Shown here: positions 6,963-38,094 of the stretch, piece after piece
Layout of the letters: every line of letters begins with the position of its first letter
How positions within the stretch are numbered: position 1 is the first letter of the stretch
Source of the DNA: Bdellovibrionota bacterium
Lineage (GTDB): Bacteria > Bdellovibrionota_C > UBA2361 > JBIKWN01
Direction: 5' to 3'
NCBI GenBank assembly: GCA_044356295.1
Contig: JBIKWN010000019.1
Span: forward strand, 1 to 38,094
DNA length: 38,094 nt
Program-made: the position numbers and the translations under genes
Notes under the pieces: generated by a model
What the model saw: the letters and a program-made list of their open reading frames with translations, nothing else
Databases searched by the model: none
Told to the model about the DNA's origin: nothing

Positions 6963-8184
<1,222 letters not shown>

Positions 8185-8195
8185 TTGAAGTGCAT

Positions 8196-8855: not shown

Positions 8856-8864
8856 TAAATCCCC

Positions 8865-9581: not shown

Positions 9582-9587
9582 TTAATA

Positions 9588-10655: not shown

Positions 10656-10680
10656 GATTAATTCCTAAAAAAAATAAAAT

Positions 10681-11187
10681 TTATTTACTAGCCCCTACCT
10701 TGCGCGATTTTGCTTCGTAGAATTCTACCGCAATTTGTTTCTTTGCAGTGTCATTCCACCGACATAAAACTTCTGATAACGATCCAACATTAACTGCCCT
10801 ATTAATGAGTGGTAGAATGCGACGCATTTGTGTTAACAATTCTTCATTATCATTCCATTCTATCCGCAATAACTTTTGCATCCTTGGCTCTATAGCGGAT
10901 ATATCAGCAGACATGCTACCCAGTGTATGCGCAAAGCTTAATACACTAGAGCTATCGATATCTGCAAGAATACCAGCAACGACCGCAATCCTATCTGCGG
11001 ATACCTTGGCGTTAATAGATTGTAGTGAGTATCGCAATTTGTGGGTCTGCGGCTCTAATAACAAATCCAGAATAGATCCCCCGCGACGCAAACGGGCGCG
11101 TGCGCCAGCCCTGCCTTGCTTTAGTTCGTTCCACCATGCTTCGCAGATTGAACCAATAGTCTTTTCCTGATTAATATTAGATTCCAT
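10681..11187 (-). CDS. cse2: Cas11 (Cse2/CasB) small subunit
   Basis: WW..L...GARARLRR motif, helical composition, W...K.IA.EFY C-terminus, position between cas8e and cas7. Confidence 0.9.
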   Translation of the reverse strand: MESNINQEKTIGSICEAWWNELKQGRAGARARLRRGGSILDLLLEPQTHKLRYSLQSINAKVSADRIAVVAGILADIDSSSVLSFAHTLGSMSADISAIEPRMQKLLRIEWNDNEELLTQMRRILPLINRAVNVGSLSEVLCRWNDTAKKQIAVEFYEAKSRKVGASK

Positions 11188-18891: not shown

Positions 18892-18897
18892 GTTTAC

Positions 18898-21348: not shown

Positions 21349-21434
21349 AAGAATACAAATAAGTTACGGGTTACTTCACATATAAGATGCTAGTGAACAC
21401 TAAAAAAAATCACAAGATTGAAAGTATCGATAAA

Positions 21435-22064
21435 TTATTTAAATACAAAACCCGTTTTTTCAGCCCAAAATAAAAGATCGAGCTCATCCATCGAAATTTT
21501 GACTGTAGAGGAGAAATTTTGAAACTTTTCCTCTATTTCTAGATACTTTTTGTGGGAAATAGTGTTCGGTACGGCAGAAATTACCTTCAAATCGACTAGT
21601 TTATTCAATATGTGACGATCAAGAATCGCTAGATTTTTTCGCCCAATATTTCTAAGAGCATGTGACCCCTCCTTCATCCCTATTCCTACAACACGAGCGA
21701 CTAGAAATTCTCTCTCAACGAGAGCACCGTGACCCTGGGATAGAAAGCTAAAAAGCTCTTCTTTTTGTTGTATAAATAGAAGAAGCCTTTTTGCTCGTGT
21801 CAGATGAAAACGCACATAGGATTCAGGGGATCTTAAAATATCTGCTACTTTTTGTTCTTTTAGTTTATGTTCAAAAAGTCCTTCAGCCTCAAGAATTTTC
21901 ATCGCTGCCTCTGCCCTCACAGGACTTGATTGAGGCGTTAAGAGACACAGTGCAATTTCTCGAAGCCACATCTCTTTTGAAAGAGTCTCAAAACTTTGAA
22001 GTGCATTTTGAATCTCTACCTTTCGTAGTTGGTACTGTTGGAAAATATCTTCATCCCAAAGCAT
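21435..22064 (-). CDS. ogg: Ogg2-type 8-oxoguanine DNA glycosylase/AP lyase (HhH-GPD)
   Basis: LCLLTPQS, RFH..RA, GIGMKEGSHALRNIG (HhH with catalytic Lys), AILDRHIL (catalytic Asp), YLEIE, LDLLFW...GFVFK with C-terminal Lys. Confidence 0.88.
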   Translation of the reverse strand: MLWDEDIFQQYQLRKVEIQNALQSFETLSKEMWLREIALCLLTPQSSPVRAEAAMKILEAEGLFEHKLKEQKVADILRSPESYVRFHLTRAKRLLLFIQQKEELFSFLSQGHGALVEREFLVARVVGIGMKEGSHALRNIGRKNLAILDRHILNKLVDLKVISAVPNTISHKKYLEIEEKFQNFSSTVKISMDELDLLFWAEKTGFVFK

Positions 22065-24261
22065 TGGAAAACATATCTAAAATTGATAGCCGTGACTTAT
22101 CCATTACCAACCAAACAAAATCATCTGCACAAAGAACGAAATCACTTCTTGGGGTTAAAAATCGTTCATCCCCTCTTTCAACTGCAACCACGACTCCCTT
22201 GATAGAGGTTTGTAGATCTAAATCAGAAAGTGCTCGCCCATCCCATGCAGAACCAGTTTCCAATTGTACAGATGTTAGCGTAAATCCTTCTTCAAGTTCT
22301 TTTTCAAAATCATGCTCTTCTTGTGCTGCTAAGAATTGATCAAGTTTCTGAATATCATTATCAAAACCTAAAACAAGAATTGTATCTCCGGGGAAAAGTT
22401 TTGTATCACCCGTTGGAGCAACTTCTTTTCTTGAGCCGCGTTGATGCAAGATTACATTGACTCCAAATTTATTTCGCAGATCAAGTTCAGTGAGTGTCTG
22501 TTCAATAACTGGTGAGAGCGGATCGATTGTAAATGCATGCAGATGCTCGTCCCAAGGCCCCATGGGGAGGGCTCCGGATGCTTTACTCTGTTTTGGTTCT
22601 GTCGATAACGTTTTAAATACCCAAATATTTGCGCGGTGTAGATAGCTACTAAATAAAATGAGAAGCACCATAACCATCGCTGCGGTTGACAATAAGATTA
22701 ATATGTCAGGTATGAGTAGTAGCGAGATAAAAACATAAAATAAAAGTGTAAAAAATAGTGAAAGAAGTTGAAGTGGAGAGATACGCGTTGCACTGGATCG
22801 TTTCTGAATATCTCCTAACCCAGTCATTGCCAATAGAAACGGAGACGATAGTAAAGAAGCAATAAAGAAATAGACTAAATCTTGTTCTCTTTCACTGTCT
22901 GGGCTATCAAGAAAAACAAATTTCATAACAAGAAAAATTGCTGTAACTATCAAACCGTTTGCAACCATGAACATGAAACGTTTTTGAAATCGTCCTCGCT
23001 GTGCAGGCATCCATTCGCGGTGGGCAACCTCAGAACGATAAAGCTCAACTAATCGCTTGATAAAGCTTGGCAAAAGAGATGTCATAAACATCGCACCATT
23101 CTCAAATGACCTTGAAACCAGAGCAGTAATTAAAATTGAAAAAGCTGCAGCTGTAATAATAATTCCTTGCCATTCAGAACTAAGTAACTTTTCATTACAA
23201 GCAAGTGTCACCATCACAATCGAGAACTCTCCGATTTGCATCATCGCTAGTCCGCTTCGCGCTGCATCTTCAAATGAGCGCCCTGCCAATAGAGAAAAAA
23301 GAGAAACGGTTATAAATTTTCCAATAATAGCGACGCTGGTAACAATACATACTAGTGTCAATGAATGTTCAAGAACTGTTGTATCAAGAAGCATCCCAAC
23401 CGCAACATAAAATATTGCCGAGAAAAAATCTCGAATTGGTCGAGTAAGTGTGTCAACTTTTTCATGGATATGTGTCTCTGAAACAATGGAGCCAGTCAGA
23501 AATGCAGCAAGTGCAGTTGAAACTCCAAGATAACTTGCCCCTAAACATGCCCCAAGACAGAGTCCTAATGAGCCTATAATAATGACTTCATTGGTAAGAT
23601 ATTTCTGCACTCTTCTTACAATAATAGGCAGAAATAACGTTCCACAGAGTAACCAGGTAACACTCGTTCCAAATAATAATGAAACCTCTTTTGAAACAAT
23701 TCGAGAAAAATCGCCTCCACCTGTTTGAGTAAGAAATGAAATTCCTAACAAAAATAAGATCGCAAACAGATCTTCAATAATTAAAATCCCAATCACCGTT
23801 TGTGCAAAATAAAAATTAGAGAGCTTTTTTTCTTGAAAGATTTTTATAATAACCCCAGTCGATGAGATTGAGAGTAAAAAACCGATTGTTAAAGCACTCG
23901 CAGATTGCAGCCCAATAAGCTTTCCAACCAAAAAACCGATCAGTAACATTAATAATACTTCCCCCATTCCAATAAAGATTGGAGCAAAGCCAAGTTGTTT
24001 TAATTTTCGAAAACTAAACTCAAGTCCAAGACCGAATAAAAGAAAGATAATACCTAACTCTGAAAGGACTCGTATTTGATCAATGTCAGTAACTGTAGAG
24101 AAGAGATTTAAATTTGGTCCGCACAAGATCCCTGCAAACAGATACGCAAGAACTAATGGCAGCCCCAACCGCTTAGCGAAAAGCACAACACTGCCGGCAG
24201 CAGTCAGTGTGATACTTATGTCTCTAATAAAAGGGTGAAGTCCTGTCACGGGCTCAACCAA
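22051..24261 (-). CDS. CPA2-family cation:proton antiporter with C-terminal TrkA-C (RCK-C) domains
   Basis: LSELGIIFLLFGLGLEFS, ISSTGVI, LIIEDL, QIGEFS motifs; two RCK-C repeats (LTELDLRNKFGVNVI..RG; LSDLDLQ...VVAVERG). Confidence 0.92.
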   Translation of the reverse strand: MVEPVTGLHPFIRDISITLTAAGSVVLFAKRLGLPLVLAYLFAGILCGPNLNLFSTVTDIDQIRVLSELGIIFLLFGLGLEFSFRKLKQLGFAPIFIGMGEVLLMLLIGFLVGKLIGLQSASALTIGFLLSISSTGVIIKIFQEKKLSNFYFAQTVIGILIIEDLFAILFLLGISFLTQTGGGDFSRIVSKEVSLLFGTSVTWLLCGTLFLPIIVRRVQKYLTNEVIIIGSLGLCLGACLGASYLGVSTALAAFLTGSIVSETHIHEKVDTLTRPIRDFFSAIFYVAVGMLLDTTVLEHSLTLVCIVTSVAIIGKFITVSLFSLLAGRSFEDAARSGLAMMQIGEFSIVMVTLACNEKLLSSEWQGIIITAAAFSILITALVSRSFENGAMFMTSLLPSFIKRLVELYRSEVAHREWMPAQRGRFQKRFMFMVANGLIVTAIFLVMKFVFLDSPDSEREQDLVYFFIASLLSSPFLLAMTGLGDIQKRSSATRISPLQLLSLFFTLLFYVFISLLLIPDILILLSTAAMVMVLLILFSSYLHRANIWVFKTLSTEPKQSKASGALPMGPWDEHLHAFTIDPLSPVIEQTLTELDLRNKFGVNVILHQRGSRKEVAPTGDTKLFPGDTILVLGFDNDIQKLDQFLAAQEEHDFEKELEEGFTLTSVQLETGSAWDGRALSDLDLQTSIKGVVVAVERGDERFLTPRSDFVLCADDFVWLVMDKSRLSILDMFSNALG

Positions 24262-24269
24262 AGATAAAA

Positions 24270-25532
24270 TTAAGCAGACTCAGCCTGCGCTTGGTATACA
24301 ACCAAAGGTTTTTCACCTTTTAAAACTGTATCCTCAGAAATTACTACTTCCTTAATATTTGGCTCGGAAGGAACATCATACATAACTTCAAGCATGATAT
24401 TTTCCAAAATCGCACGCAGACCACGAGCACCAGTTTTTCGTTCAAGTGCTTTTTGCGCTACTGCTTGTAATGCTTGCTCTTGGACACGGAGGGTTACACC
24501 TTCCATTTCAAGAAGGCGTTTGTACTGCTTAATTAAAGCGTTCTTAGGTTCTGTGAGAATTTGAACGAGTGCTTCGATATCTAGTTCTTCAAGGGTTGCA
24601 ACAAGTGGCAAACGACCGATAAATTCAGGAATCAGTCCAAACTTCAAAAGATCCTCAGGCTGTGCTTGATGGAGTAGAACTTTTTTATCTTCTGCTTTTT
24701 TCTTTTCAGTTTTTGTAGAACCGAATCCAAGTTTCTTTTGACCAATTCTTTGACGAATTACGTCTTCGAGACCAACAAAAGCACCACCGCAAATAAATAG
24801 GATGTTACTTGTATCAACCTGCAAAAATTCTTGTTGTGGATGTTTTCTGCCACCTTTTGGAGGAACACTTGCAACAGTTCCTTCAAGCATTTTAAGAAGA
24901 GCTTGCTGAACACCTTCTCCTGAAACATCACGAGTAATAGAAGGATTTTCAGCTTTACGAGAAATCTTGTCTATCTCATCAATATAGACAATACCTCGCT
25001 GTGCTTTCTCAACATCGTAATCGCAAGACTGGAGTAAACTTAAAATAATATTTTCAACATCCTCACCGACATATCCCGCCTCAGTAAGGTTAGTTGCATC
25101 AGCAATAGTAAATGGAACTTGCAAAATACGAGCAAGTGATTGAGCCAGTAATGTTTTTCCAGTTCCTGTAGCCCCAATTAAAAGAATATTGGATTTTTGT
25201 ATCTCGACATCACCAGATTTGCCCTTTGCTTCGATTCTTTTGTAGTGATTATGAACCGCAACCGAAAGAACTTTTTTTGCATGATTCTGACCAATCACAT
25301 ATTGATCAAGGAAAGTTTTAATCTCTTTAGGTCGCGGAATTTTTGATTGAGTAACCTGAGCTTCAGCAGCCCCACCATCAATCTCTTCAGCAATAATATC
25401 ATTACAAAGGTCGATACACTCATCACAAATGTATACAGAAGGACCAGCAATAAGTTTTCGCACCTCTTCTTGGGTACGATTACAGAAAGAACACACGAGT
25501 GTTTGTCTATTCTTATCTTGTCCTCTGCTCAC
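24270..25532 (-). CDS. clpX: ATP-dependent Clp protease ATP-binding subunit ClpX
   Basis: C4 zinc finger (CSFC...CDEC), [39 protein letters not shown]. Confidence 0.99.
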
Positions 25533-25538
25533 AAGCGA

Positions 25539-26123
25539 TTAGCTCCTTCTCTGATAAACTTCGTCGATTATACCATACTCTTTAGCCTGTTCGCTCGTCA
25601 TAAAATTATCGCGATCAGTGTCTTCGATAATTTGCTTCATAGGCTTTCCTGTATGATGAACAAGGATTTTGTTAACTTCATCTTTAACACGAAGCATCTC
25701 TTTTGCATGAATTTCTACATCAGATGCTTGTCCCTGAAACCCACCAAGTGGTTGGTGAATCATGATTCGAGAATGTGGCAATGCAAAACGTTTTCCTTTT
25801 GCTCCACCTGCAAGAAGCAATGCTCCCATACTTGCTGCCTGTCCAACACATACAGTTGCGACATCGGCACGGATGTAGTGCATCGTGTCGTAGATTGCCA
25901 ATCCAGCACTCACTGAACCACCAGGACTATTTATATATAGAAATATATCTTTCTCTGGATCATCACTCTCTAGAAATAACATCTGAGCCACAATCAAGTT
26001 TGCAATATGATCATCTACTTGATTACCAAGAAAAATGATTCTGTCTTTTAAGAGACGAGAGTAAATATCGTATGAGCGCTCTCCTTTGCCTGTTTGCTCA
26101 ATGACATATGGAACGTATGGCAT
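25539..26123 (-). CDS. clpP: ATP-dependent Clp protease proteolytic subunit ClpP
   Basis: [35 protein letters not shown]. Confidence 0.99.
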
Positions 26124-26126
26124 GAT

Positions 26127-27395
26127 TTATCCTTTTTTAACGTACGTTACTTTTGCTTTTTCAACTAACATATCTTGCGTTTTTGAACGTGTAATTTCAA
26201 CTGCAAGATGTATCAGTGAACGACCAGTAAACATTTTTCGCGCTTCTGCTTCTGAGACACGATACTGCGCTGCAACTTCTTGAAACGCACTCTTCATGTC
26301 TTCATCATTAGGAGTTATTTTCTCAGTTTGGGCAATCATATCAGTGACGATATTTGCTTTGACTCTTTTTGCTGCCATTTCACCGAATGACTCACGAAAC
26401 GGCTCAACTGGGATATCTTCAAATTTAGTATTCTTTGGATCAACTGCTCCTACTCGAATTAAAAGATTTCTGACTTCATCATCGATTAATGCTTGTGGAA
26501 CTTGGAATGGATTGATCTCGATTATCTTTTCAACCAAAACATTCTTCGCTTTTTCTTTTGCCTGACCTTCTGATTGAGCATTTAAATTTTTCTCAATATC
26601 CATCTTGAGCTCAAGCACTGTCTTTGGCTCAAGTCCAAGTGTTGAAACAAAATCATCGGTGAGCTCTGGTAGCTCTCTTTCCATGATTTTATTTAAAGTA
26701 ACAAGATAAACCATCTCACCTTCATCACCTGCAGGAAGTTTTACTCCTCTGGTCTCTCCGATTTTTAAGCCTACAACTTGCTCATCAAACTCTTTTGGAA
26801 GTCGTCCATCACCTAATCCAATCGTTGCATTCTCTGAATTAGTTTCCGCTCCATCTTTTGCTTTAAATACAACTGATACATCAATTATGTCTTCGGCTTG
26901 TACCTCTGTGCGAGTTGTCTCTTTTGAACCTGAGCGTGAACGACGGTATGAATCGATAGTTTTCGTAATTACTTCATCCGTAACCTCTTCTTTTTCTACA
27001 GATATTTCGAGTCCTTCATATCCTGTAATTTTAGGAGTCGGATAAATTGAAAAATCAGCTGTGTACTCTAATTTCTCTGATGGGTTTTCAGAGGTAATAT
27101 CTATCTTTGGTGATCCAACAAGTTGGAGCTCATTCTTTTTAATAACTTCATCAAGTGAACTTGAAACAAGTTTTGAAACGACATCCCACTTGATGCTTTC
27201 TCCGTAGAGCTTTTCAACCATCTCACGCGGCGCCTTACCTGCACGAAAGCCATTTATTTTTGCTTTTCCTGCATAGTTCTTCATTGCAACTTCAAATTCA
27301 CGCTGAAAATGAGCTACAGGAACAGTAACAGCCGCTTTGCGGGTAACTTCATCAATAGTGGTAATAGTAGATTGGATTTCTTCTGTTTGATTCAT
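26127..27395 (-). CDS. tig: Trigger factor
   Basis: Ribosome-binding signature GFRAGKAP, FKBP-like middle domain, position upstream of clpP-clpX. Confidence 0.95.
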   Translation of the reverse strand: MNQTEEIQSTITTIDEVTRKAAVTVPVAHFQREFEVAMKNYAGKAKINGFRAGKAPREMVEKLYGESIKWDVVSKLVSSSLDEVIKKNELQLVGSPKIDITSENPSEKLEYTADFSIYPTPKITGYEGLEISVEKEEVTDEVITKTIDSYRRSRSGSKETTRTEVQAEDIIDVSVVFKAKDGAETNSENATIGLGDGRLPKEFDEQVVGLKIGETRGVKLPAGDEGEMVYLVTLNKIMERELPELTDDFVSTLGLEPKTVLELKMDIEKNLNAQSEGQAKEKAKNVLVEKIIEINPFQVPQALIDDEVRNLLIRVGAVDPKNTKFEDIPVEPFRESFGEMAAKRVKANIVTDMIAQTEKITPNDEDMKSAFQEVAAQYRVSEAEARKMFTGRSLIHLAVEITRSKTQDMLVEKAKVTYVKKG

Positions 27396-27938: not shown

Positions 27939-28421
27939 CTAATCCCCAATAATCTCATCTCGATCATCGGTAATATTTCGTATCACACCATTTGCATCAA
28001 CGACAACTATATAAGGAACACGGTCACCCAATACTCGGTTAAATGCTTGGTCGTATTCTTCATTGCCTGACATCATAAGCTCAAATTCAGTAATGCGACG
28101 TTCTGATAATACTTCTTTTACTTCTTTAAGTTTATCAGAGCTATCGAGAGTAGCAGCTATAAAAATATACTTACCTTGATTTTTAGGTTGCCGCGCAAAT
28201 TCATTTATAGCTTGCATTGCTCTCTTTGATGAACCACAGTTTGAACGCCAAAAAACGACAATGACAGGCTTCCCAAGATAACTCTGTATATTAGTCTCAT
28301 CACCGTCTTTCAACGTATAAAACCTCATCAATGGCGTTTCTTGACCAATGAGCACCTTCCCTGGGATGGGTCCACAGGCTGCAAGCAATAAACATAAGAG
28401 CAAAAATATTTTTTTTATCAC
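27939..28421 (-). CDS. TlpA/ResA-like thioredoxin-fold lipoprotein with a CxxS site
   Basis: Likely GTG start at 28421 (GTGA overlap with the upstream stop). Lipobox LAAC, GKPVIVVFWRSNCGSSK, VPYIVVVDANGVIR. Confidence 0.8.
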   Translation of the reverse strand: MIKKIFLLLCLLLAACGPIPGKVLIGQETPLMRFYTLKDGDETNIQSYLGKPVIVVFWRSNCGSSKRAMQAINEFARQPKNQGKYIFIAATLDSSDKLKEVKEVLSERRITEFELMMSGNEEYDQAFNRVLGDRVPYIVVVDANGVIRNITDDRDEIIGD

Positions 28422-30709
28422 TTTGTCATCCGCTCTTTGATCACCCAAAGCTCTTCCTCATAGATTTTTTTTACATCTTTATTTTGCTCTGCTTTATATG
28501 CTTCAAGTATAACTTGTAGTACAGCTGTATTATTAACATTTCGAAGTGCATGAACCGATGCCTTACGTACTTCAACTGATGGATTTGATAACAGTGCAAC
28601 CATCGAAGCCGCTGGAATCCGTTTTTCAAATTCTTGTAAATAGTAGGAAAGGAAACTTTGGTTTGGAGCACTCACTAAAAAAGAAAATAATGGATTCTTT
28701 TCTTCAAGATGTTTTAGTGGTTGCAAAGCTCTCTCTACCGTAGACTTAGAAAAAACCATTTCACTGCTTGTCGTTACCCCTACAAGAGCTGCAAAACTGG
28801 TACGATCTTTTGGATCCATTTTTCGAAACAATGAAAAAAGCTGTTCAATAAATACATTACCGCTACTTCTGCCAGCAACATAATCGAGTAAATCTTTTGC
28901 AATGAGTGGATCAGTATTATCAACAAGTAAAACTTTTAAAAGCTCTAATGCATCCGCATGTAGCCAAATTCCTAACTGTTCAACATCACCCTTTGAGACT
29001 TCTTTGGACAACAGTCGCGAAATGAGTTGAAGCGTTCCTTCAGGTAGTTCTTCTCCACTAAGAAGCGGATGAAGATATGCTTTCGTGGTATCACCAAAAA
29101 GATTTCGCTTGATAACTACTTCAAGAACGGAAGAAGAAATAGTTTTACCTTGCTGCAAAGCAGAGGTACTTAACCAACGAAGCTCATCATCTGAGCAGCT
29201 CTGAACCATAGCAGCAAATTGCGGTTGAAGTTCTGGTGAGGACTCAAGCAACATACCTATTAATGCTTTTGAAGAAATATTTATAGGAGGTAACGTTGAA
29301 CTATTCCCCATCTTTGCAATCACTGCACTCACGCTGGTTCTGTAAATATCTTCATCAGATGAAAGTACAAGCGCTGAAAGGAATTTACTTCCTAAGTATG
29401 GATTGAGAATAAAAATACGCTCGGCGATTTCCCCACGTGCAGCAGCAGGCAAGCTGCCATCAAGAATTTTCAAGCTTAATTCATACTCAGGAGGATTATC
29501 GGCAAGACTTACAGAATCGAGCCATGATTTTACTGCATCAGCTAGGAGTCCAAGTTTAAACCGCTTGGCTCGAATCATAATTTCACGCTCAGCAAGTAAT
29601 CGCTCTGATGGTTCAATTGATTTTAATGCTGCATCAACGAGTAACGTATGGGCGAGTGGATCATCAGATTGAGAAAGCTCTGCAAACTTAGCTCGTTTTT
29701 CAGTAATTTGTACATCTTGAGAATTTAAGATATCGGCAGCTTGCTTCATTCGATCATTTGCCACCGCCCGGAGAACCATTTGTGTTTCATCGAGGGTTTG
29801 TTCCGATTTGTTACTAAATAAAAGAAGCCCAATGGACAGAGCTATAACCAGGACTAAAAAGATACCAACCCCAATTAAAAGTTTTTTTCGATTTTGTACA
29901 CTTGCTGATGTTTCAGCTGATTGATCTTCTTTGTTAGCTCCAGAACCATCGAAGACTTGAAGTTGATTATCCGTGGACCTCTTTTCAAGTCTGCGTTCAC
30001 CACGCTGTGTTACCTGAGCTTCTTCATTAAGGATTTTTTCTTTTATCTTACGAAAATGAGAAGCAAAAATTGTAGCAGACTGTGGTGCTGACGAATCAGT
30101 ACTTTCAGCAATCGCAAGAGACTCATGAATCCATGCAGGAGCAGTTTGAAGTAAAGAACCAAATAATCTTCTACAAAGGGCAGTGAGTGCGAGTACATCT
30201 GCTCTCAGTATAGACTCGAGACTTCCTTCAAAGGCTGGATTACCCATAACACCAACAAGTGCTATTTCACCAGTTCTTGTCAACCAAAATGAATTTGCTC
30301 CTATATCACCTAATCCAATACCGTGAGCATGGAGCGTCTCAACAATCTGAAGCGCAGCAGCGAATCGACGCTCTGCTTCTTTCATATCTAAATTACCCTG
30401 TGTAATTGAATAGCCATCAGTATATTCAACGACGATAAAAAGTAACCCGCTTGGATCAAGTCCAACACTAAAAAGTTTTGGTGTTCGAATAGATACATTA
30501 GAAAACCTACCCATTCGTTTAACAAATTGAGTCAGGCGCTCATCATTATTTTCGAATTGTTCACGACAGATCCAAAGACCAACAGATCGCCCTCTTTCGC
30601 CATCATAGGCTTTAAATAGATCAGAATAGGTTTGTTCAATGAGTTGGTTTTCAACTGCAAAGATATCAGTAATTAATGTACTGACAAGGAATCCAGACGG
30701 TAAAGACAT
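28418..30709 (-). CDS. Membrane protein: degenerate Ser/Thr kinase-like N-domain, one TM helix, large helical C-domain ending in a HEAT-like repeat
   Basis: LFKAYDGERGRSVGLW, FIVVEYTDG, LHAHGIGLGDIGANSFWL (kinase subdomains with degenerate catalytic residues); TM LLIGVGIFLVLVIALSIGLLLF; LLSNPSVEVRKASVHAL (HEAT-like). Confidence 0.7.
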   Translation of the reverse strand: MSLPSGFLVSTLITDIFAVENQLIEQTYSDLFKAYDGERGRSVGLWICREQFENNDERLTQFVKRMGRFSNVSIRTPKLFSVGLDPSGLLFIVVEYTDGYSITQGNLDMKEAERRFAAALQIVETLHAHGIGLGDIGANSFWLTRTGEIALVGVMGNPAFEGSLESILRADVLALTALCRRLFGSLLQTAPAWIHESLAIAESTDSSAPQSATIFASHFRKIKEKILNEEAQVTQRGERRLEKRSTDNQLQVFDGSGANKEDQSAETSASVQNRKKLLIGVGIFLVLVIALSIGLLLFSNKSEQTLDETQMVLRAVANDRMKQAADILNSQDVQITEKRAKFAELSQSDDPLAHTLLVDAALKSIEPSERLLAEREIMIRAKRFKLGLLADAVKSWLDSVSLADNPPEYELSLKILDGSLPAAARGEIAERIFILNPYLGSKFLSALVLSSDEDIYRTSVSAVIAKMGNSSTLPPINISSKALIGMLLESSPELQPQFAAMVQSCSDDELRWLSTSALQQGKTISSSVLEVVIKRNLFGDTTKAYLHPLLSGEELPEGTLQLISRLLSKEVSKGDVEQLGIWLHADALELLKVLLVDNTDPLIAKDLLDYVAGRSSGNVFIEQLFSLFRKMDPKDRTSFAALVGVTTSSEMVFSKSTVERALQPLKHLEEKNPLFSFLVSAPNQSFLSYYLQEFEKRIPAASMVALLSNPSVEVRKASVHALRNVNNTAVLQVILEAYKAEQNKDVKKIYEEELWVIKERMTK

Positions 30710-30712
30710 AGT

Positions 30713-32878
30713 TTAGGATTCCCTTACTGAATGTTGTTTGCCAAAAACTCCAGCTATATGAAAGCGCTGACCTGCATTAAATTCTTTCACACTCATTACG
30801 GTGACACCACGTCCTAATCGTACATTCTCTAGCAGCAACCGAAATGCCATTCTTGCCTCTTCAGAACAGATAAACATACATGCCGCAGCACCACGATTTC
30901 TTAGACGTTGGACTACGAGTGAATTCCACTGTTCCATGAAGAGGTTTAAGACACTATCTTCAAGGTTGATAGAACGTTGTAGATCATCGTTTTGGGCTAA
31001 CTCTAATGATTTAGTAAATTCTTCTGAAAGAACAAAAGCCATCGGTGTTATGCCAGCATCTTCAATTGATGGAATAAGACGACGACTTAATTTTCTTCTC
31101 ACATGATCAAGGAGAGGTTTAATGGCAACATCTGTATCTTCTGCAGCTGAAATTTTATTTGTAATACAAATTTCAGAGACTGTTTGCAGTATAAGTTGCA
31201 AGTTTGTTATGGGTAATAATTCTCTCACCATTGAACATAAAAGTTGATGTAGTTTTGGTGGAGAGATAAAAAAACGAACCATTGTTTCTGAACGCAATCC
31301 TGCTGCTTGTTGTTCAAAATGTTTCATTTCATCAAGCACGCTCGAAAACGGAATTAACGATTCCGGATGTTCCAATAGCTCTGCAGTAGCCTGCAGTAAT
31401 GTAAGCTCAAGTGTATCAAAACCCCTGAGAGATAATCCTTGTAGTAAACGAGTAGTTTCTGGGCTGGATGTTACTTCAGTTAAAGCAGTACCCCAAAGTG
31501 GGTGTATCATCTCAGTTGCTAGAACTTCAAAGCCAAGTGCACGAGCTTCATTTCTTCTGAGTGGAATAAAAATCACATCGAGCGAACAAAGTGCAGTTAT
31601 AGATCGAATATCCTGACTCTTAATCTGAATTTGAAGTGGTGATAATTGATCAAATCGCTCACAGTATATATTTGGAATGATAACTCCGAGGGATTCTTTT
31701 ATTCGTAATCGAAAATCCTCCCATCCAGAATTTAAAAAGTCGAATCGATGCTTCAATAAATCATATGCGTGAACCCCAAGAAGTATTCTGAGCGGCTGAA
31801 TTGATTCTTGATTAACGTGATCCTGTATTAATGCTTGTTTGTTCGTGCTTCGACGATCTTCAACTAATTTAGATTCAGGAGTAGCGAAAGGAAGTCGTAG
31901 AAGTGGCTGTGTGCTTATGACATCTCCTTCTTGATTATGAACTATTGTCGGTTTGACGAATAAACCAAATCCCAAGAAAAATATTCCAACTCCAAAAAAA
32001 GGTAGAAAAGGGATTCCAGGAAATAATCCCAGCGTCATCAAAAGTCCCCCTGTTGCAACTATCGCAAGTGGATTTGCAAAAAGTTGCTGTGATAAGTCGC
32101 TTCCTAAGGTTAAACCGTCATTGCTGCTCACTCTCGTGACAACAATACCAGCACAGATTGAGATAAGAAGTGCAGGTATTTGGCTAACAAGTCCATCACC
32201 AACAGTAAGAATAGTATATGTTTGGGCGGCAGCACCTATCTCCATACCACGGGAAATCCCAAGATACAGTCCACCAATAATATTCACAAAGATAATAATA
32301 ATTCCGGCGATAGCATCACCTTGGACGAATTTCATAGATCCATCCATTGCTCCGAATAATTGAGACTCTTTTCGAAGCTCTTCCCGTTTTGTTCGAGCCA
32401 TTTCAGCAGTAATGAGTCCTGCGCGAAGATCTGAATCGATACTTGCTTGTTTTCCAGGTAATGCATCAAGTACAAATCGAGCAGCTACTTCACTAACTCT
32501 CGCAGCTCCCTTTGCAATCACAAGAAAGTTTACAATCGTAACAATGACAAAAATAACAAGCCCAACAAAAAGTTCACCTCGTATAAGAAATGTTCCAAAA
32601 GCATGGATTACGACACCCGCATCGGCTTGACTCAGTATCAACCTTGAAGACGCAACGTTTAAAGAAAGTCGAAACAATGTTGTCAATAACAGCATTGTTG
32701 GAAAAGACAAAAGACTAAGGCTCGAGGGCATATAAAGCCCCAAAAGTAACAGGAGCAGTGAAATTGAAATGTTGAGAACAATAAGTAAATCAATCGCAAT
32801 AGTAGGCAGAGGAACAACCAACATTGAAATGATGGCAAGCACCAATGCAGCAAGTACTATGTCTCCAGTTCGTCTCAT
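30713..32878 (-). CDS. sctV: SctV/FlhA (FHIPEP) family type III export gate protein, non-flagellar-like
   Basis: FPTMLLLTTLFRLSLNVASSRLIL, RVSEVAARFVLDALPGKQASIDSDLRAG, ESQLFGAMDGSMKFVQGDAIAG, LTVGDGLVSQIPALL, VVTRV; divergent cytoplasmic domain. Confidence 0.85.
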   Translation of the reverse strand: MRRTGDIVLAALVLAIISMLVVPLPTIAIDLLIVLNISISLLLLLLGLYMPSSLSLLSFPTMLLLTTLFRLSLNVASSRLILSQADAGVVIHAFGTFLIRGELFVGLVIFVIVTIVNFLVIAKGAARVSEVAARFVLDALPGKQASIDSDLRAGLITAEMARTKREELRKESQLFGAMDGSMKFVQGDAIAGIIIIFVNIIGGLYLGISRGMEIGAAAQTYTILTVGDGLVSQIPALLISICAGIVVTRVSSNDGLTLGSDLSQQLFANPLAIVATGGLLMTLGLFPGIPFLPFFGVGIFFLGFGLFVKPTIVHNQEGDVISTQPLLRLPFATPESKLVEDRRSTNKQALIQDHVNQESIQPLRILLGVHAYDLLKHRFDFLNSGWEDFRLRIKESLGVIIPNIYCERFDQLSPLQIQIKSQDIRSITALCSLDVIFIPLRRNEARALGFEVLATEMIHPLWGTALTEVTSSPETTRLLQGLSLRGFDTLELTLLQATAELLEHPESLIPFSSVLDEMKHFEQQAAGLRSETMVRFFISPPKLHQLLCSMVRELLPITNLQLILQTVSEICITNKISAAEDTDVAIKPLLDHVRRKLSRRLIPSIEDAGITPMAFVLSEEFTKSLELAQNDDLQRSINLEDSVLNLFMEQWNSLVVQRLRNRGAAACMFICSEEARMAFRLLLENVRLGRGVTVMSVKEFNAGQRFHIAGVFGKQHSVRES

Positions 32879-32884
32879 CTCTTT

Positions 32885-33778
32885 TTACACAAATGCTTTC
32901 ATCATCTGCATGCCGATACAAGTAAGCAAGATTAAAAGAAAGCCCATAAATACCATAGCTACCGGACCAGTCGCTTCAAGTTCAAGTTTTTTAATTTTTG
33001 CTTCAATTTTAGTTTCTCGTTGTGATGAAACTGCATCTGCCATTTCTTGAAGTTGTTTCGTAATTTCTCCACCATGCTTAAGTACCTGCGCCATAGCACC
33101 AAACGTTTGACCAAGCTCTAAATGTCCACTTCGTTTAGCTACTTCATTAAGTGCTGTTTCTAATGAAAGTCCAGAACGAGCAAGCGTTGTAACCATCCTC
33201 AGATATTCTGTTACAACATTATGAGAATCACGTTCATCTGCCATTGATACAACTTTTTGTAGACATGGACCGATGTCAAGTGAACTACTAACACCGATTG
33301 CAACTTGTTCAACTACAAGAGGAAGATAGAACATAATATCTTCAGATCGAGCCGCAATTTTTCTTTCAAGCATTGATTTTGGGATTTGAAGACCTACCAA
33401 TAGTCCCATGACAGCACCCATCAAAATATACTGTCCACCAGCAAATGTACCTCCATACCCGAGTACAATTGCACCGATAATTGGGGCAAAAGTCTTTAGA
33501 CGATAAAACTTTTTTCGACCTTCAGGAGTAATAATCCCTGCTTGAAATAAGAGACCTTCCTCAGTCGGTTTTTCTTTTACTTTTTTCTTCTTCTTTAATA
33601 ACTCATCTTTTGTTTTCTGGAATACGTCCTCTGTCTTATTAAAGTCACCAATTCCTTCACGTTGAGCTTTAATAATATTTTTTACCTCTGAGTTCTTACT
33701 CAGATAGAAAAATAGGAATCCTGCTCCTCCGGTGAGGAGAATTCCAAAAGCTACAATTAAGACTGTTATGCTATTCAT
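32885..33778 (-). CDS. tadC: Tad pilus inner-membrane platform protein TadC (T2SS-F domain)
   Basis: N-terminal TMs; T2SSF-like region (LPLVVEQVAIGVSSSL...GLSLETAL...HGGEITKQLQEMAD...EAKIKKL...GPVAMVF); directly after tadB. Confidence 0.85.
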   Translation of the reverse strand: MNSITVLIVAFGILLTGGAGFLFFYLSKNSEVKNIIKAQREGIGDFNKTEDVFQKTKDELLKKKKKVKEKPTEEGLLFQAGIITPEGRKKFYRLKTFAPIIGAIVLGYGGTFAGGQYILMGAVMGLLVGLQIPKSMLERKIAARSEDIMFYLPLVVEQVAIGVSSSLDIGPCLQKVVSMADERDSHNVVTEYLRMVTTLARSGLSLETALNEVAKRSGHLELGQTFGAMAQVLKHGGEITKQLQEMADAVSSQRETKIEAKIKKLELEATGPVAMVFMGFLLILLTCIGMQMMKAFV

Positions 33779-33797
33779 AATCTATTTATTACTGAAA

Positions 33798-34763
33798 TCA
33801 ACATCTAATTTTGGAAACTTTACTCACCCAAAACATACCCATAAACATTACAAAAATTCCAAACTGCCAAACCTGCCAACCCATAGGATTAGATACTGAT
33901 TCAGTAATAAATTTAGGCAGAATAAAATAAATAAAACTCATTAAACCGACTTGGATTGCGACAATAAACCAAATAGAGCCTCGCTGAAGTCCAATAGCTG
34001 CAACGGCTTGTGAGCGAAAATATTGTCTTCTTCTGACTTGTTTTGAAAGACGTTCAAGAGTGTCCGACAGGGTTCCCCCTACTCTCATACTTAAAAGAAG
34101 TGCTTGTACAAAAAGTTCAATTTCAGGGTGTGCAACATCTGAACCAAATGCACCCACTGATTTGTCCTCTGGTGCTCCTGCTCGAATTCTTTCAAGCATT
34201 AATTCAACTTCAAATCGTACTAAAGAATCAGATTCAAGCGAGGCTGATGCAGTTCCGAGCGCTTGTAATGGATTCATACCAGTTCTTAAAAGCCCTACAA
34301 GTGAAAGTAAAAATGGAGCATAATCTCGGTCGAATTGCTTGAATCGTTTGCTCATTGATCGTGCAACCAATGTGGCCATGATCCCAGAACCACTAAATAA
34401 AGAGATCGTCCACCAAAGAAAATTTAATTTAAGTAACGCAATCATAAAAAAGAATGCTGTAATGAGCGCGCAATAAATTTTATACGTTCTCGGGGTCATC
34501 TTCCACTGAGCATAGGTGAGTTTTTTTTCAAGTGTCAGCTCGGAACTAGACATCTTTAATTGTCCGCCCTCAATGCCAGAACGTGCCATTCGTGCAACTG
34601 GATCTTCAAAATCATCAGCCATACCACCACGATTATTTTTTAATCCTTGGAATCGGGTTGCTATATCTCCACCCCGAATATACGGCCAAGCAAAAATTCC
34701 AGCCACGCTCAGTAGAGACATAATTCCAATAGCGATGAGTAAAAAGATTACAGGCTCATTCAT
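33798..34763 (-). CDS. tadB: Tad pilus inner-membrane platform protein TadB (T2SS-F domain)
   Basis: F...FLLSLVGLLRTG.NPLQAL, VGGTLSDTLERLSKQVRRR, AAIGLQRGS, NPMG, KVSKIR C-terminus; follows cpaF. Confidence 0.87.
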   Translation of the reverse strand: MNEPVIFLLIAIGIMSLLSVAGIFAWPYIRGGDIATRFQGLKNNRGGMADDFEDPVARMARSGIEGGQLKMSSSELTLEKKLTYAQWKMTPRTYKIYCALITAFFFMIALLKLNFLWWTISLFSGSGIMATLVARSMSKRFKQFDRDYAPFLLSLVGLLRTGMNPLQALGTASASLESDSLVRFEVELMLERIRAGAPEDKSVGAFGSDVAHPEIELFVQALLLSMRVGGTLSDTLERLSKQVRRRQYFRSQAVAAIGLQRGSIWFIVAIQVGLMSFIYFILPKFITESVSNPMGWQVWQFGIFVMFMGMFWVSKVSKIRC

Positions 34764-34769
34764 TGTAAA

Positions 34770-36263
34770 CTACCTTTTCCCAGAAGTTGGATACGGAGTA
34801 TTGAATGTAAAATCTTGAGGCCATTCGCCTAGAAAAATATTGTTATCGGCTAATATTTTTTCGAATCCACTCGACCATGACTCAATTTTCCACATTGGCT
34901 TCTCACCTGACTGCGACAAACGGAACATAGGACGAACTTGAATAACACCTTCAACAAAGTGTCCAACTTCAATAATTTCAGCAATTCGAGGTCTCCCCGT
35001 CACTTTATCCCGAACCAACCAAACAATTGAATCAACAGCGAGAGCTATCTGTTGTCGAATAATATCGATCGCCACAGATTTCTGTGCACGACCAAGTAAG
35101 CTTTCTAGACGCACTAAGGTTTCGCGCGCACTTCTTGCGTGGAGTGTTGTCATCCCTGTATGTCCAGTTTGTGCACTTTCAAGAAATGCTTCAGCTGCAA
35201 AAGGAGTTCTCATCTCACCTAAGATAACTCTTGTTGGAGTCATTCGAAGAGTAGTTTTAATATGTTCCTGAAGTGTTACTTCGCCCACTCCTTCAGAGTT
35301 AGCAGGTCTCGAGACAAGTGATCGGAAAAATGGATGTTGAAAATTAACCTCTGGAGTATCTTCTACAGCAACAATTGATTCATCATTTCCAAATTGGGTT
35401 CCTAAACATTTGAGAAGTGTTGTTTTTCCAGTACCCGTCTCACCAGCAATCATCATTGTTGCGTGTCCAGAACGGGTTAAGGCAGCAAGATAATCTACAA
35501 TTAATGGTGGTGCCACTTGATAGGTTACTAGATTTTCTAAAGCAACTTCAGTCATTCGTGGAACACGAACACATAACAGTGGTCCTCGAGCGCCACAAAC
35601 ACTTTGATGTACCGCACATACACGAGTTCCATTTGAGAAAGCACCATCAACAGTATGCTGCTGTGTTGTTAAAGACTTTCCTAGACGGAGCAATAATCTA
35701 TCCAAAAATGAAACATATGATTGCTCATTAGGCCAATGAAGACTCGTTAGTTCACTAACTTTACCCCGTTGCAATACAACTGTTTGGTAATCATATACAT
35801 GGATATCAGTTACTTCTCTGTTTTCAATAAGAGGTTGCAGCACTCCCCAACCCATGAGATCTCGTTGGAGATGGATAATGATATGTGCTCGTTCAATATC
35901 ATCAATGACGTCATTTCTTTTTCTTATAACTTTATCAACGGCTGCTGCAATAGTAGCCTCATCGCCAGAACCACCACCCGCAAGTACGTTTACGTCTCCT
36001 CCGATCTCTGTTCGAGCATCACGCATAATTGCTTGCGCAGTAGAAGAAAGCTGATTTTGTTTTTTGTGCACACCACCAGATCGGTGTTGTGTTTCAGTTG
36101 ATGATTTTGAAGTTAAATTATTTGCATTTTGAGAAACGACCGAGACTTCCCCAGTGGATTGAGGCAAAGCCTTTTGATCTCCACCTCCTGGAGATTTGTT
36201 TTTATTCCCTCGAGTAGAAAAGAGTCCTAGAAGATTCTCTTTATCTTTATTATTGTCCACCAT
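34770..36263 (-). CDS. cpaF: Tad pilus ATPase CpaF/TadA
   Basis: GWGVLQPL, VTDIHV, Walker A GETGTGKTT, VEDTPE, LRMTPTRVILGEMR, His box TGHTGMTTLHA; low-complexity N-terminal extension. Confidence 0.93.
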   Translation of the reverse strand: MVDNNKDKENLLGLFSTRGNKNKSPGGGDQKALPQSTGEVSVVSQNANNLTSKSSTETQHRSGGVHKKQNQLSSTAQAIMRDARTEIGGDVNVLAGGGSGDEATIAAAVDKVIRKRNDVIDDIERAHIIIHLQRDLMGWGVLQPLIENREVTDIHVYDYQTVVLQRGKVSELTSLHWPNEQSYVSFLDRLLLRLGKSLTTQQHTVDGAFSNGTRVCAVHQSVCGARGPLLCVRVPRMTEVALENLVTYQVAPPLIVDYLAALTRSGHATMMIAGETGTGKTTLLKCLGTQFGNDESIVAVEDTPEVNFQHPFFRSLVSRPANSEGVGEVTLQEHIKTTLRMTPTRVILGEMRTPFAAEAFLESAQTGHTGMTTLHARSARETLVRLESLLGRAQKSVAIDIIRQQIALAVDSIVWLVRDKVTGRPRIAEIIEVGHFVEGVIQVRPMFRLSQSGEKPMWKIESWSSGFEKILADNNIFLGEWPQDFTFNTPYPTSGKR

Positions 36264-36404
36264 ATTTAGAGATTACGGCTAAATGACTAGTAAACGTAAG
36301 GAATAATTTAATATTCTTTGCCGCAAAAATAATAACAATATTTTATTTTATTATTTTTGACTTAATCTATGTAAAAAACGAAGTTTGATAAAAACACAAG
36401 AAAT

Positions 36405-36430
36405 AAAAAAGGAGCCCGATAAGGCTCCTT
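36405..36430 (-). terminator. Intrinsic terminator downstream of the flp pilin gene
   Basis: Minus strand AAGGAGCC-ttatcg-GGCTCC-TTTTTT, about 70 bp after the flp stop. Confidence 0.8.
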
Positions 36431-36500
36431 AAGTCGCTTAAAATAACTAAGATAAAACTTAATCAAATTAAGCAACCAGTTAGTTAACTGATAGTAACTA

Positions 36501-36665
36501 TTAGTTAGTAACTCCAGAGTTAATTTGTGAGAAGCTTGAAGAAACGCTAGTTCCTAAAGCTCTAACAGCAACAATTGCAACAATTGCAATCAATGCTACA
36601 AGAAGTGCGTACTCAACCAAGCTCGCACCTTTTTCTTTTTTCTGAGATATTTGTTTATTGTTCAT
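36501..36665 (-). CDS. flp: Flp/Fap (type IVc) major pilin, 54 aa, absent from the supplied ORF track
   Basis: Hand translation: MNNKQISQKKEKG|ASLVEYALLVALIAIVAIVAVRALGTSVSSSFSQINSGVTN. Prepilin G|xxxxEY Flp motif followed by a hydrophobic helix. Confidence 0.95.
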   Translation of the reverse strand: MNNKQISQKKEKGASLVEYALLVALIAIVAIVAVRALGTSVSSSFSQINSGVTN

Positions 36666-36808
36666 ACTGACCTTTAATACAAGTTTATGTTAATAATCTT
36701 TTCCGACCTACTAGACCTTCAAAGCATTCACCAATTAAGGTCACTCCAAGAAGAATGTCCCCTAGGGTGATCTAAACCTAAGATGCCACCTCTTGTCACT
36801 AGGATTTT

Positions 36809-38062
36809 TTACTTTTTTGAAGATCCACCAAAAATTCTTGAAAAAATACCAGTATTTGCAGTAGGAGTACTAGAGGAACCTCCTGCAAATTCTGTTTTTA
36901 CCTCTCCAACAAGACCGAGTTCCCGAGCAATCTTTTCAAGCGTAAGGCGGGTTGCCTTCTGCCCAAGACTATAAATAGTCCTACCACTACCTGGCCAAAG
37001 GTTACCTTTCTGGTCATAAGGAATCTGTGGCAAGCGCCAAGGAAGGTCTCCTAATCGGTGTGCTGGTTCTAATTCAGCGGCAATCTGATCGATGCTCAGC
37101 GCAGCTCCAGAGATTGGATTAACAAGGAAAACTATCTTATCTGCTGAACCAACAAGGGTCTTTACGAAACTTAAATACAGGTCAACCGCTGTTAATCCTA
37201 ATATTGAAGCATCAATAACAATAAGAACTATATCAGCTGCCCGAAGAACTCCTCCTGTTGCCGGACCCATTCGTCCCGCAGTATCAACAAGAATCACATC
37301 ATACATCACTCGAGACAGCTCAAGAATACGCTGTGCAAGTCCAAGTCCATCGGTATGACACACTAAGTCCATAGACTCAGCCATCCGATCTGGAGGCATT
37401 AATACCGACACATCACTGCTAATAGGAATTAGTGCATCTTTCAATGAATCTCTTGATATCTCACGAGAACCATTGACCCAAGCGCTGACTACTTTTGCCT
37501 CTACTCCGTTAACTGTTAACGCACGGGATAAGTCACGAGTTTCAACATCCATATCCCACATCATGGTTCGTTGGTTGAAAACGCTACATACTTCAGCAAG
37601 TGCTGCCGTCATCGACGTTGCACCGACACCACCTTTAGCATGGGCAATCGCAACTACTTTACCAACTCGCGTTCTTCCTTCACGCCGAAACTCAGCATGA
37701 ATTGCTACAAGGTCTTGTAGGAAATCAAGTGGACTAGAAGAATCCGTGAAAACTTTTCTTACACCTACAGAATGAGCAGCACGGAATGCTCCTCCACCAT
37801 ACGCTTCATCGGTTACAAACATTATGATTTGTATCCAAGGAGCCAACGTGTGACATTGTCTGGCAATAAGAGTAGACCGTTCACCTAATCCTGAACCAAG
37901 CACTACAACATCTGCTTCCGTTAAACGATCAGCATAGTCTCGTTCATTAACAAGCTTCACTTTGAGATCAAGCATCTCAATATCACTTTGCGAAAAAGCT
38001 TCTACTCTTTTTGCGCAAAATGCCTGTGTCTCTGTGTTGACATCAATAATGAGGAGCTTCAC
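36809..38062 (-). CDS. cpaE: CpaE/TadZ-like pilus localisation protein (atypical receiver domain plus MinD/ParA-like ATPase)
   Basis: Receiver-like N-terminus (MKLLIID...ADVVVL), GKVVAIAHAKGGVGATS deviant Walker A, YDVILVD, QIPYD; Tad context. Confidence 0.85.
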   Translation of the reverse strand: MKLLIIDVNTETQAFCAKRVEAFSQSDIEMLDLKVKLVNERDYADRLTEADVVVLGSGLGERSTLIARQCHTLAPWIQIIMFVTDEAYGGGAFRAAHSVGVRKVFTDSSSPLDFLQDLVAIHAEFRREGRTRVGKVVAIAHAKGGVGATSMTAALAEVCSVFNQRTMMWDMDVETRDLSRALTVNGVEAKVVSAWVNGSREISRDSLKDALIPISSDVSVLMPPDRMAESMDLVCHTDGLGLAQRILELSRVMYDVILVDTAGRMGPATGGVLRAADIVLIVIDASILGLTAVDLYLSFVKTLVGSADKIVFLVNPISGAALSIDQIAAELEPAHRLGDLPWRLPQIPYDQKGNLWPGSGRTIYSLGQKATRLTLEKIARELGLVGEVKTEFAGGSSSTPTANTGIFSRIFGGSSKK

Positions 38063-38094
38063 TGGTCCTCCAATAAGTCGAAAGATAATGCATG

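Follow-up and report, generated by a model that had tools for sequence, protein, structure and literature searches.

Contig JBIKWN010000019.1 of a Bdellovibrionota bacterium (assembly GCA_044356295.1) raises the question of why the gene for a type III secretion export gate lies inside the operon of a tight adherence (Tad) pilus motor, and with which machine that gate works. The window, i.e. the whole stretch of DNA analysed (38,094 nucleotides), is an entire contig (C100) of the source genome G000 (2.96 Mb, 128 contigs, 93.6% complete), whose host is an uncultured freshwater relative of Bdellovibrio. On the minus strand, the strand of all features of the locus described below, the genes cpaF, tadB, tadC, an export-gate gene of the FHIPEP family (SctV/FlhA), a pseudokinase gene and a gene for a thioredoxin-like lipoprotein follow one another at distances of 6, 19, 6 and 3 bp, and the last two overlap by 4 bp (GTGA). 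An earlier, sequence-only reading of the stretch had drawn this gene string and its spacing, and the coordinates of the open reading frames (ORFs) and the Pfam matches confirm both. The genetic coupling of the Tad motor and the type III gate is real and ancient within the phylum. On balance, the region is probably the Tad-motor half of a phylum-wide composite set, made up of a Tad (Flp) pilus and a needle-less, secretin-less, type-III-like export core. The FHIPEP protein is best read as the SctV-type gate of this core, with SctD, SctJ, a 75-aa protein, SctQ and the divergent SctR, SctS and possibly SctT as its putative partners. A joint function of pilus and core is likely; the two machines are probably built and used together, and the system is probably switched by Ser/Thr phosphorylation.

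Conservation of the gene order

The proteins of the window were mapped on one locus each of 40 relatives from 21 families of one order. TadC, FHIPEP and the pseudokinase are colinear in 32 of the 40 loci, across the 21 families sampled, and are nearly always preceded by TadZ...CpaF-TadB. Among the other eight loci, one carries FHIPEP-pseudokinase at a contig start, six break off at a contig end beside the pseudokinase, and one (in genome G005) is an exception. The pseudokinase is present in 41/41 sampled genomes, that of the window counted, and in 114 of the 124 genomes of the phylum, a set in which all members are labelled 'same order' or 'same class'. The synteny across genera that had been named earlier as a check is thus found across the whole order and beyond. 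A chimeric assembly was considered and rejected, since the order recurs in 32/40 relatives and a 320-bp contig from an independent lake metagenome (run X4; window 32668-32987, one mismatch) bridges the tadC/FHIPEP junction.

Among the FHIPEP loci sampled from many phyla the linkage is rare. A scan with a profile of the Tad-linked gates yielded at least 600 stretches, mostly ordinary FlhA from many phyla, which served as references for the trees and as a negative set; Tad neighbours were seen in 2 of 80 such FHIPEP loci, both from 'Bdellovibrionota bacterium' metagenome-assembled genomes (MAGs) of the phylum described here. In the phylum of a named Bdellovibrionaceae MAG, the pseudokinase profile gave kinase-domain matches only in 201 sampled genomes (best 87 bits; all 150 among the matches listed lay within profile positions 8-357). 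For 101 sampled genomes of that phylum, at most one FHIPEP each was found at E ≤ 1e-100, the best with 570 bits, which is the level of the flagellar FlhA of the MAG.

Affiliation and residues of the export gate

The Tad-linked gate (30713..32878, 721 aa) matches PF00771 with 532.8 bits (cut-off 29.1) and covers profile positions 1-653 of 657. Its scores lie below the equivalog cut-offs of both TIGR01399 SctV (497 bits, cut-off 692) and TIGR01398 FlhA (466 bits, cut-off 772), with SctV ranking above FlhA. The best solved relative is LcrD of Yersinia (348.7 bits), and FlhA chains reach at most 295. The genome carries three FHIPEP genes: the flagellar FlhA on C128, the Tad-linked gene (T) and a gene for a 620-aa protein (X) on C18.

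A FastTree tree was built from 119 rows, comprising 35 T gates (window included), 5 X gates, the FlhA of the genome, 6 named plasmid SctV and 72 FHIPEPs of diverse phyla; one fused ORF of 1461 aa and loci without a 580-800-aa ORF were omitted. T and X each formed one clade (support 100 each), and the flagellar clade was split from T, X and SctV, also at 100. A quick IQ-TREE search (LG+G4) on 59 selected rows gave 100 for FlhA, T and X and 90 for SctV, with the centre of the tree unresolved. Since the branches are long and the quick method is less safe, the claim is limited to T lying outside FlhA and not being nested in the named SctV. By these trees, the Tad-linked gate forms a clade of its own, distinct from flagellar FlhA and from named injectisome SctV, and the FHIPEP family would have at least one further deep lineage besides these two.

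The conserved membrane charges of Salmonella FlhA, which we take to be D45, R94, R147, R154, D158, K203, D208 and D249, align with D30, R79, R127, R134, D138, K183, D188 and D228 of the gate. Across 33 rows of the T clade six of the eight are invariant, one is D/E and one K/R/N. The residues presumably lining the flagellar chaperone pocket (D456, F459 and T490 of FlhA) are not kept in the T gate in the same alignment. With its membrane charges kept and its full-length Pfam coverage, the gate looks functional.

The sequence-only reading had also allowed for a displaced flagellar gene. That the gate is a displaced FlhA, or an assembly artefact, is extremely improbable: membership of the FHIPEP family, and nothing more, speaks for it, against which the genome has its own FlhA (865 bits) beside FlhB on C128, falling in the flagellar clade that excludes the Tad-linked genes at 100. 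In addition, the relative G020, for which no flagellar-type FlhA or FliP match was obtained, keeps the Tad-linked gate, and the adjacency recurs in the relatives and is bridged by the contig of another study, as described above. The displaced FlhA was rejected on these grounds.

The type-III-like core

Besides FHIPEP, no T3SS (type III secretion system), flagellar or secretin family was found by Pfam among the ORFs of the window, as had been noted from the sequence. The orphan gate that this seemed to imply does not hold for the genome, whose other contigs carry non-flagellar SctD/J/Q/R/S/T/U-like genes as well as an SctN-like ATPase. Among these, cluster B (C94) encodes, by Pfam, a protein with two FHA domains, an SctD-like protein with FHA, SctJ, two small ORFs, an SctQ of the FliN type, FliP and FliQ (both weak), ORFs of 184 and 86 aa and a TPR protein; it has no gate gene of its own. 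SctQ of cluster B is present in 113 of the phylum's 124 genomes. It shares a contig and strand with the pseudokinase, at a distance of 4-7 kb, in at least 18 genomes; four of these genomes belong to one family (f2) of the own order, and 14 come from ten families in other orders.

In these supercluster genomes the order pseudokinase, double FHA, SctD-like, SctJ, 75-aa ORF, SctQ and SctR was the same in 10/10 loci fetched, and TadZ...CpaF-TadB-TadC-FHIPEP stood upstream in all six loci whose upstream side was fetched separately. In the example G058 the Pfam annotation gives, on one strand, a hybrid histidine kinase/response regulator, PP2C, FHA, an intact Pkinase, TadZ, RcpC, CpaF, TadB, TadC and FHIPEP, followed by the pseudokinase (Pkinase 43.8 bits plus HEAT_2), double FHA, SctD-like, SctJ, a 76-aa ORF, a FliJ/YscO-like protein and SctQ, and then by FliP, FliQ, FliR, an FlhB N-terminal domain, a 144-aa ORF and TPR. 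Because the core follows the pseudokinase directly in the supercluster genomes, the Tad-linked gate is best read as the SctV of cluster B. The head of the locus is shared within the own order, where PP2C-FHA-Pkinase precedes TadZ in 3/3 annotated relatives, with Flp and RcpC between TadZ and CpaF. An injectisome would be marked by an SctC secretin, an SctF needle or inner rod and an SctN encoded with the core; among the 28 ORFs of the G058 supercluster and in clusters A, B and X (A and X are described below), which the needle search covered, neither a secretin nor a needle family turned up.

Several points weigh against the composite set. In most families of the own order cluster B lies away from the Tad-gate module, by 1.4 Mb in G040, and the age of the contiguous arrangement, which would be older than the split one, is judged from its distribution rather than from a rooted species tree. 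In the exceptional G005 locus (L063, C34:1-11000) the pseudokinase and thioredoxin-like genes follow 5.8 kb of unrelated genes without a Tad or FHIPEP match. Cluster B of the source genome matches FliP with 54 bits (C-terminal part) and FliQ with 33 bits and has no detectable FlhB/SctU; its export channel may therefore be reduced. The tblastn search with SctR/S/T/U of G058 against the genome matched the flagellar set and cluster A and gave no match on C94, so that SctR and SctS of cluster B rest on the weak Pfam matches. The one non-flagellar SctN-like ATPase is an orphan on C38, and no secretin was found beside either Tad locus or any T3SS-like cluster. No RNA runs holding the locus were listed, and the lineage has no cultured member.

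Some of these points would fit a gate that has been co-opted by the Tad machine, its nonameric ring serving as a docking subunit, or one coupled to the proton-motive force, beside TadB, TadC and CpaF without a T3SS export channel. Such a gate would have stayed welded to tadC in the own order (6-bp gap here) while cluster B moved away, and the degenerate SctR/SctS matches and the missing SctU of cluster B agree with it; the membrane charges of the gate are invariant nonetheless. We consider it unlikely, given that cluster B is kept in most of the phylum, is contiguous with the gate in the supercluster genomes and is exactly what G040 keeps together with the Tad-linked gate; moreover, we know of no FHIPEP that works without SctRST. 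The hybrid of Tad and T3SS suggested by the sequence-only reading stands as far as the gate is genetically tied to Tad. A lone gate acting as a subunit coupled to the proton-motive force, its other suggestion, is less likely than an SctV of a needle-less core tied to Tad, because the core follows the pseudokinase in deeper lineages.

Other type III, Tad and secretin genes of the genome

The flagellar set comprises FlhA and FlhB on C128 with FliPQR nearby, and FliE/F/H/I/J on C67. Cluster A (C71) encodes, by Pfam, an SctI-like protein, one of 239 aa, FliP, a FliR-like protein, an FlhB N-terminal domain, a histidine kinase, the C-terminal piece of FlhB and a protein with FHA; cluster X (C18) holds genes for a sigma factor and an SctJ-like protein, two small ORFs, and genes for FHIPEP and a TPR protein. 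Clusters A and X (C71:59-9786; C18:52242-57223) were seen as a further non-flagellar T3SS-like set, split over two loci and with the 620-aa FHIPEP as its own gate. FlhB/SctU of cluster A is encoded by two genes, an N-terminal one and a C-terminal one of 82 aa, which are separated by a gene for a GAF/PAS histidine kinase. The layout of the A/X set is conserved in G015, G020 and G010.

All three clusters (A, B and X) are found again in four well-assembled relatives. The single-contig genome G040 keeps B and the Tad-linked gate and has neither A nor X. G020 (1.8 Mb) has no flagellar-type FlhA (~850 bits) or FliP (~240 bits) match and keeps T, X, A, B and both non-flagellar FliPs, which shows the T3SS-like sets to be independent of the flagellum. 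From the patterns of G040 and G020, X pairs with A and T with B, the X-A pairing being drawn from a single genome.

A second, ordinary Tad locus (C119:11809-19292) encodes TadZ, a 68-aa ORF, RcpC, CpaF, TadB, TadC and a TadE/G-like protein, and is not followed by FHIPEP or a pseudokinase. Two secretin genes were found in the genome (C25:11713-12225; C37:19888-20313), the latter heading a type II secretion cluster (GspE, GspF, GspG, minor pseudopilins).

These gene sets bear on whether the Tad pilus and the export core interact at all. They could be two independent machines that share a regulon or an inherited gene order, i.e. an ordinary Tad pilus and a separate needle-less exporter, co-expressed without contact or hand-over of cargo. 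Linkage alone is no proof of contact, the two modules are unlinked in most families of the order, and since the Tad locus on C119 is gate-less and the A/X set is another gate-bearing T3SS-like set, each kind can exist alone. Two independent machines are nevertheless quite unlikely: it is the gate, and not the rest of the core, that stays in the Tad operon with gaps of 3-19 bp across 21 families, and in Myxococcus xanthus the recruitment of the T3SS-like apparatus T3SS* is described, in the available passages of PMC12075869, as dependent on the Tad-type Kil machine.

Pseudokinase and lipoprotein

The pseudokinase (28418..30709, 763 aa) is a bitopic membrane protein with a weak match to APH and a HEAT_2 match of 28.4 bits. 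Its AlphaFold2 model (pLDDT 83.7) predicts a kinase-like fold at residues ~1-235, a hydrophobic helix of 28 residues (271-298) with NRKK on the N-side, and an all-alpha, HEAT-like solenoid at 308-762. In Foldseek the kinase-like part is matched by PknB-type kinases and by the kinase-homology domain of Rv3910 (TMt 0.62-0.64; Rv3910 0.64). Among 23 aligned members, W46 takes the position of the beta3 Lys and S140 that of the catalytic-loop Asn, the position of the DFG Asp falls in a G-x-M-G motif, and the HRD-type D135 is the only invariant catalytic residue. Because the kinase fold is present and the Lys, Asn and DFG Asp are replaced, the protein is a pseudokinase, the label it had been given from the sequence. 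With one transmembrane helix and no signal peptide, the solenoid of the model would be periplasmic. A complex prediction of the cytoplasmic domain of the gate (335-721) with the pseudokinase domain (1-235) scored 0.00, which weighs neither for nor against binding.

A word-indexed search with the pseudokinase gave three relatives and was too insensitive; it was replaced by the genome and profile searches. Searched against 1.84 billion representatives, the solenoid profile matched 254 clusters at E ≤ 1e-30; the matches listed are either fragments or proteins of ~800 aa that carry the domain C-terminally. An Atlas structure search with residues 300-763 returned HEAT-repeat clusters at ≤ 0.89, which are leads only. 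They include a Myxococcota cluster of 131 proteins in which a T2SSE-type ATPase is fused to HEAT repeats (TM 0.51), and also a Pkinase+HEAT cluster. As a lead, HEAT solenoids may recur with type-IV-filament motors.

The lipoprotein (27939..28421, 160 aa from a GTG start) has a thioredoxin fold (Redoxin 38.8 bits, AhpC-TSA 38.4 bits) and a monothiol CxxS site. The GTG at 28421 can serve as its start codon; the gene then overlaps the pseudokinase gene by 4 bp (GTGA), and the N-terminus, VIKKIFLLLCLLLAAC followed by G, forms a lipobox. The motif is CGSS here, and W-C-x-x-S is found in 26/26 orthologues, for which reason the protein is not a classical CxxC reductase. With CxxS instead of CxxC and a score against ResA (NF002854) of 26 bits, far below the cut-off of 170, a canonical TlpA/ResA oxidoreductase was rejected; of the earlier label TlpA the thioredoxin-fold family stands and the CxxC active site does not. 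A thioredoxin-like gene follows the pseudokinase in 25 of the 40 loci of the relatives and in none of the 10 supercluster loci. The CxxS lipoprotein is a later accessory, limited to part of this order.

Proposed mechanism

Gene content, linkage, conservation, clade membership and residue conservation were observed directly; from these we infer joint assembly, the cargo, which way control runs and any part played in predation. In the composite set, the CpaF/TadB/TadC motor would polymerise the Flp pilus, and the T3SS-like core, energised via the conserved ion pathway of the gate, would move cargo, in unfolded form, through the inner membrane at the same site. The pilus would then display the cargo or push it out, as has been proposed for Kil and T3SS* of Myxococcus. 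Ser/Thr phosphorylation would switch assembly or firing, the locus being headed in relatives by genes for a Hanks kinase, PP2C phosphatase and FHA protein, and the switch may be read out by the membrane pseudokinase after the gate and by the FHA-bearing SctD-like proteins.

In a stronger and more tentative form, the supercluster may encode a single integrated envelope machine, a Tad pilus fed by type III export. An SctV/SctRST(U) gate, seated in SctJ/SctD rings, would pass unfolded cargo to the pilus, which would act as a piston or carrier; power would come from the Tad ATPase and the proton-motive force, and the membrane pseudokinase and FHA proteins would form a contact-triggered switch. If true, such a secretion system would represent a new architectural class and a genetic 'fossil' of how Kil and T3SS* of Myxococcus came to cooperate. 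The locus also supplies a minimal gene list for reconstitution or co-folding, a testable phospho-switch hypothesis and two unstudied conserved parts, namely the pseudokinase-HEAT family (~254 clusters, as above) and the CxxS lipoprotein.

Comparison with known systems

The closest known case is the pair of Kil and T3SS* in Myxococcus, and the present finding is a variant of the Kil/T3SS* theme; a further paper on this pair, by Thiery in 2022, has been cited. In M. xanthus, Kil and T3SS* co-localise and are mutually dependent (Herrou 2025, PMC12075869), and their clusters are separate: kil at MXAN_3102-3108 and MXAN_4648-4661, T3SS* at mxan_2434-2464 (PMC8460266; PMC12075869). The authors proposed that the two form one complex, with the pilus delivering the cargo of T3SS* (Seef 2021, PMC8460266; Herrou 2025, PMC12075869). 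According to a 2025 review, Kil and T3SS* seem to occur together only in the Cystobacterineae (PMC12428579).

As in Myxococcus, a Tad-type motor goes with a T3SS-like basal body that has no secretin, needle or translocon, as read here from gene content, and many FHA-domain proteins are encoded in and around the clusters. In contrast to the separate clusters of M. xanthus, the gate gene lies inside the Tad operon, and the whole core follows it in deeper lineages. KilF is described with an N-terminal FHA domain, whereas none was found by Pfam in CpaF of the window, and neither the pseudokinase-HEAT protein nor the CxxS lipoprotein comes up in the M. xanthus passages available. The present case also belongs to another phylum, and the likeness is drawn from gene content and descriptions, not from M. 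xanthus sequences. As a second lineage, unrelated to Myxococcus, it supplies comparative evidence for a true functional unit of Tad and T3SS, a question that the passages available leave open there (PMC12075869; PMC12428579). This evidence consists of the gate gene inside the Tad operon and of basal members with the whole T3SS-like core colinear with the Tad genes. Full-text searches, with supplements outside their coverage, found no paper on a gate gene within a Tad operon.

The gate resembles injectisome SctV (LcrD/YscV, MxiA, HrcV) and FlhA in its full-length FHIPEP architecture and conserved membrane charges; unlike theirs, its neighbours are Tad genes and not SctU/SctW/SctN or FlhB. Pseudomonas controls its H1 type VI secretion system (H1-T6SS) by threonine phosphorylation through PpkA/PppA/Fha1, and the M. 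tuberculosis pseudokinase MviN (Rv3910) acts with FhaA. The present locus is like MviN in a membrane-anchored kinase-homology domain with a fold resembling Rv3910, and like H1-T6SS in the kinase, PP2C and FHA genes that flank a secretion machine (a remark on T6SS is found in the available text of Seef 2021, PMC8460266); both likenesses are analogies only. In Bdellovibrio bacteriovorus the Tad machine is reported, in the available part of Tesseur 2026 (10.64898/2026.07.08.737194), to be essential for prey invasion. That case shares with the present one a predator-related lineage and FHA, TPR and kinase-type regulators around the Tad machine, and differs in that TadZ and TadA are fused and tadC has a locus of its own. 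The text of that paper does not use the words FlhA, FHIPEP, SctV and 'type III'.

Tad genes and other features of the window

The Tad/Flp core of the window is complete for Flp pilin, CpaF/TadA, TadB, TadC and TadZ. CpaF/TadA (34770..36263, 497 aa) matches T2SSE with 111.7 bits and the TadA family TIGR03819 with 208.6 bits, below the cut-off of 373. The platform proteins TadB (33798..34763, 321 aa) and TadC (32885..33778, 297 aa) match T2SSF with 49.1 and 42.1 bits. Upstream lies a TadZ/CpaE-like ATPase of the ParA/MinD type (36809..38092; AAA_31 52.6 bits, CbiA 26.7 bits), the 5' end of which is cut by the contig end; its orthologues are 60-92% identical, and its position is shared in relatives.

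The gap of ~0.5 kb between tadZ and cpaF (36264-36808) contains flp alone, likewise in the congener G002, whereas flp and rcpC lie there in other relatives (L044:5108-6792, L059:5295-7036); the window is without RcpC, and three RcpC genes are found elsewhere in the genome. The Flp/Fap-type pilin (36501..36665, 54 aa) has the motif G-ASLVEY and scores 38.8 bits against PF04964 Flp_Fap (cut-off 32.2). It is followed by a terminator-like hairpin (36409..36430) with a 9-bp stem, five G-C pairs and a T run, which the terminator scan gave as the sole such site within an intergenic gap of the region. As 6 terminator-like sites were observed against 6.3 expected from shuffles, their count alone is not significant, and the terminator and promoter counts are at or below the shuffled expectation. 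By its sequence and position, the hairpin appears to set off a separate cpaF...trx transcription unit, or attenuated read-through into it.

Past the lipoprotein, a tRNA on the opposite strand is followed by genes for trigger factor, ClpP, ClpX and Lon. The stretch 17656-27395 carries tig-clpP-clpX, a Na+/H+ exchanger, an Ogg glycosylase and lon, and tig-clpP also lies just downstream of the Tad-gate module in many relatives. By Pfam, no secretion genes were found in the window outside the Tad-gate locus. The rest includes a type I-E CRISPR-Cas system, with cas genes at 6963-15533 (cas3, cse1, cse2, cas7, cas5, cas6e, cas1 and a likely cas2 ORF) and an array at 2827-6455, which accounts for the GC-rich, ORF-poor stretch of the window. 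The array extends over ~3.6 kb with a period of 61 bp and the repeat CGGTTCATCCCCGCGCACGCGGGGAACAC.

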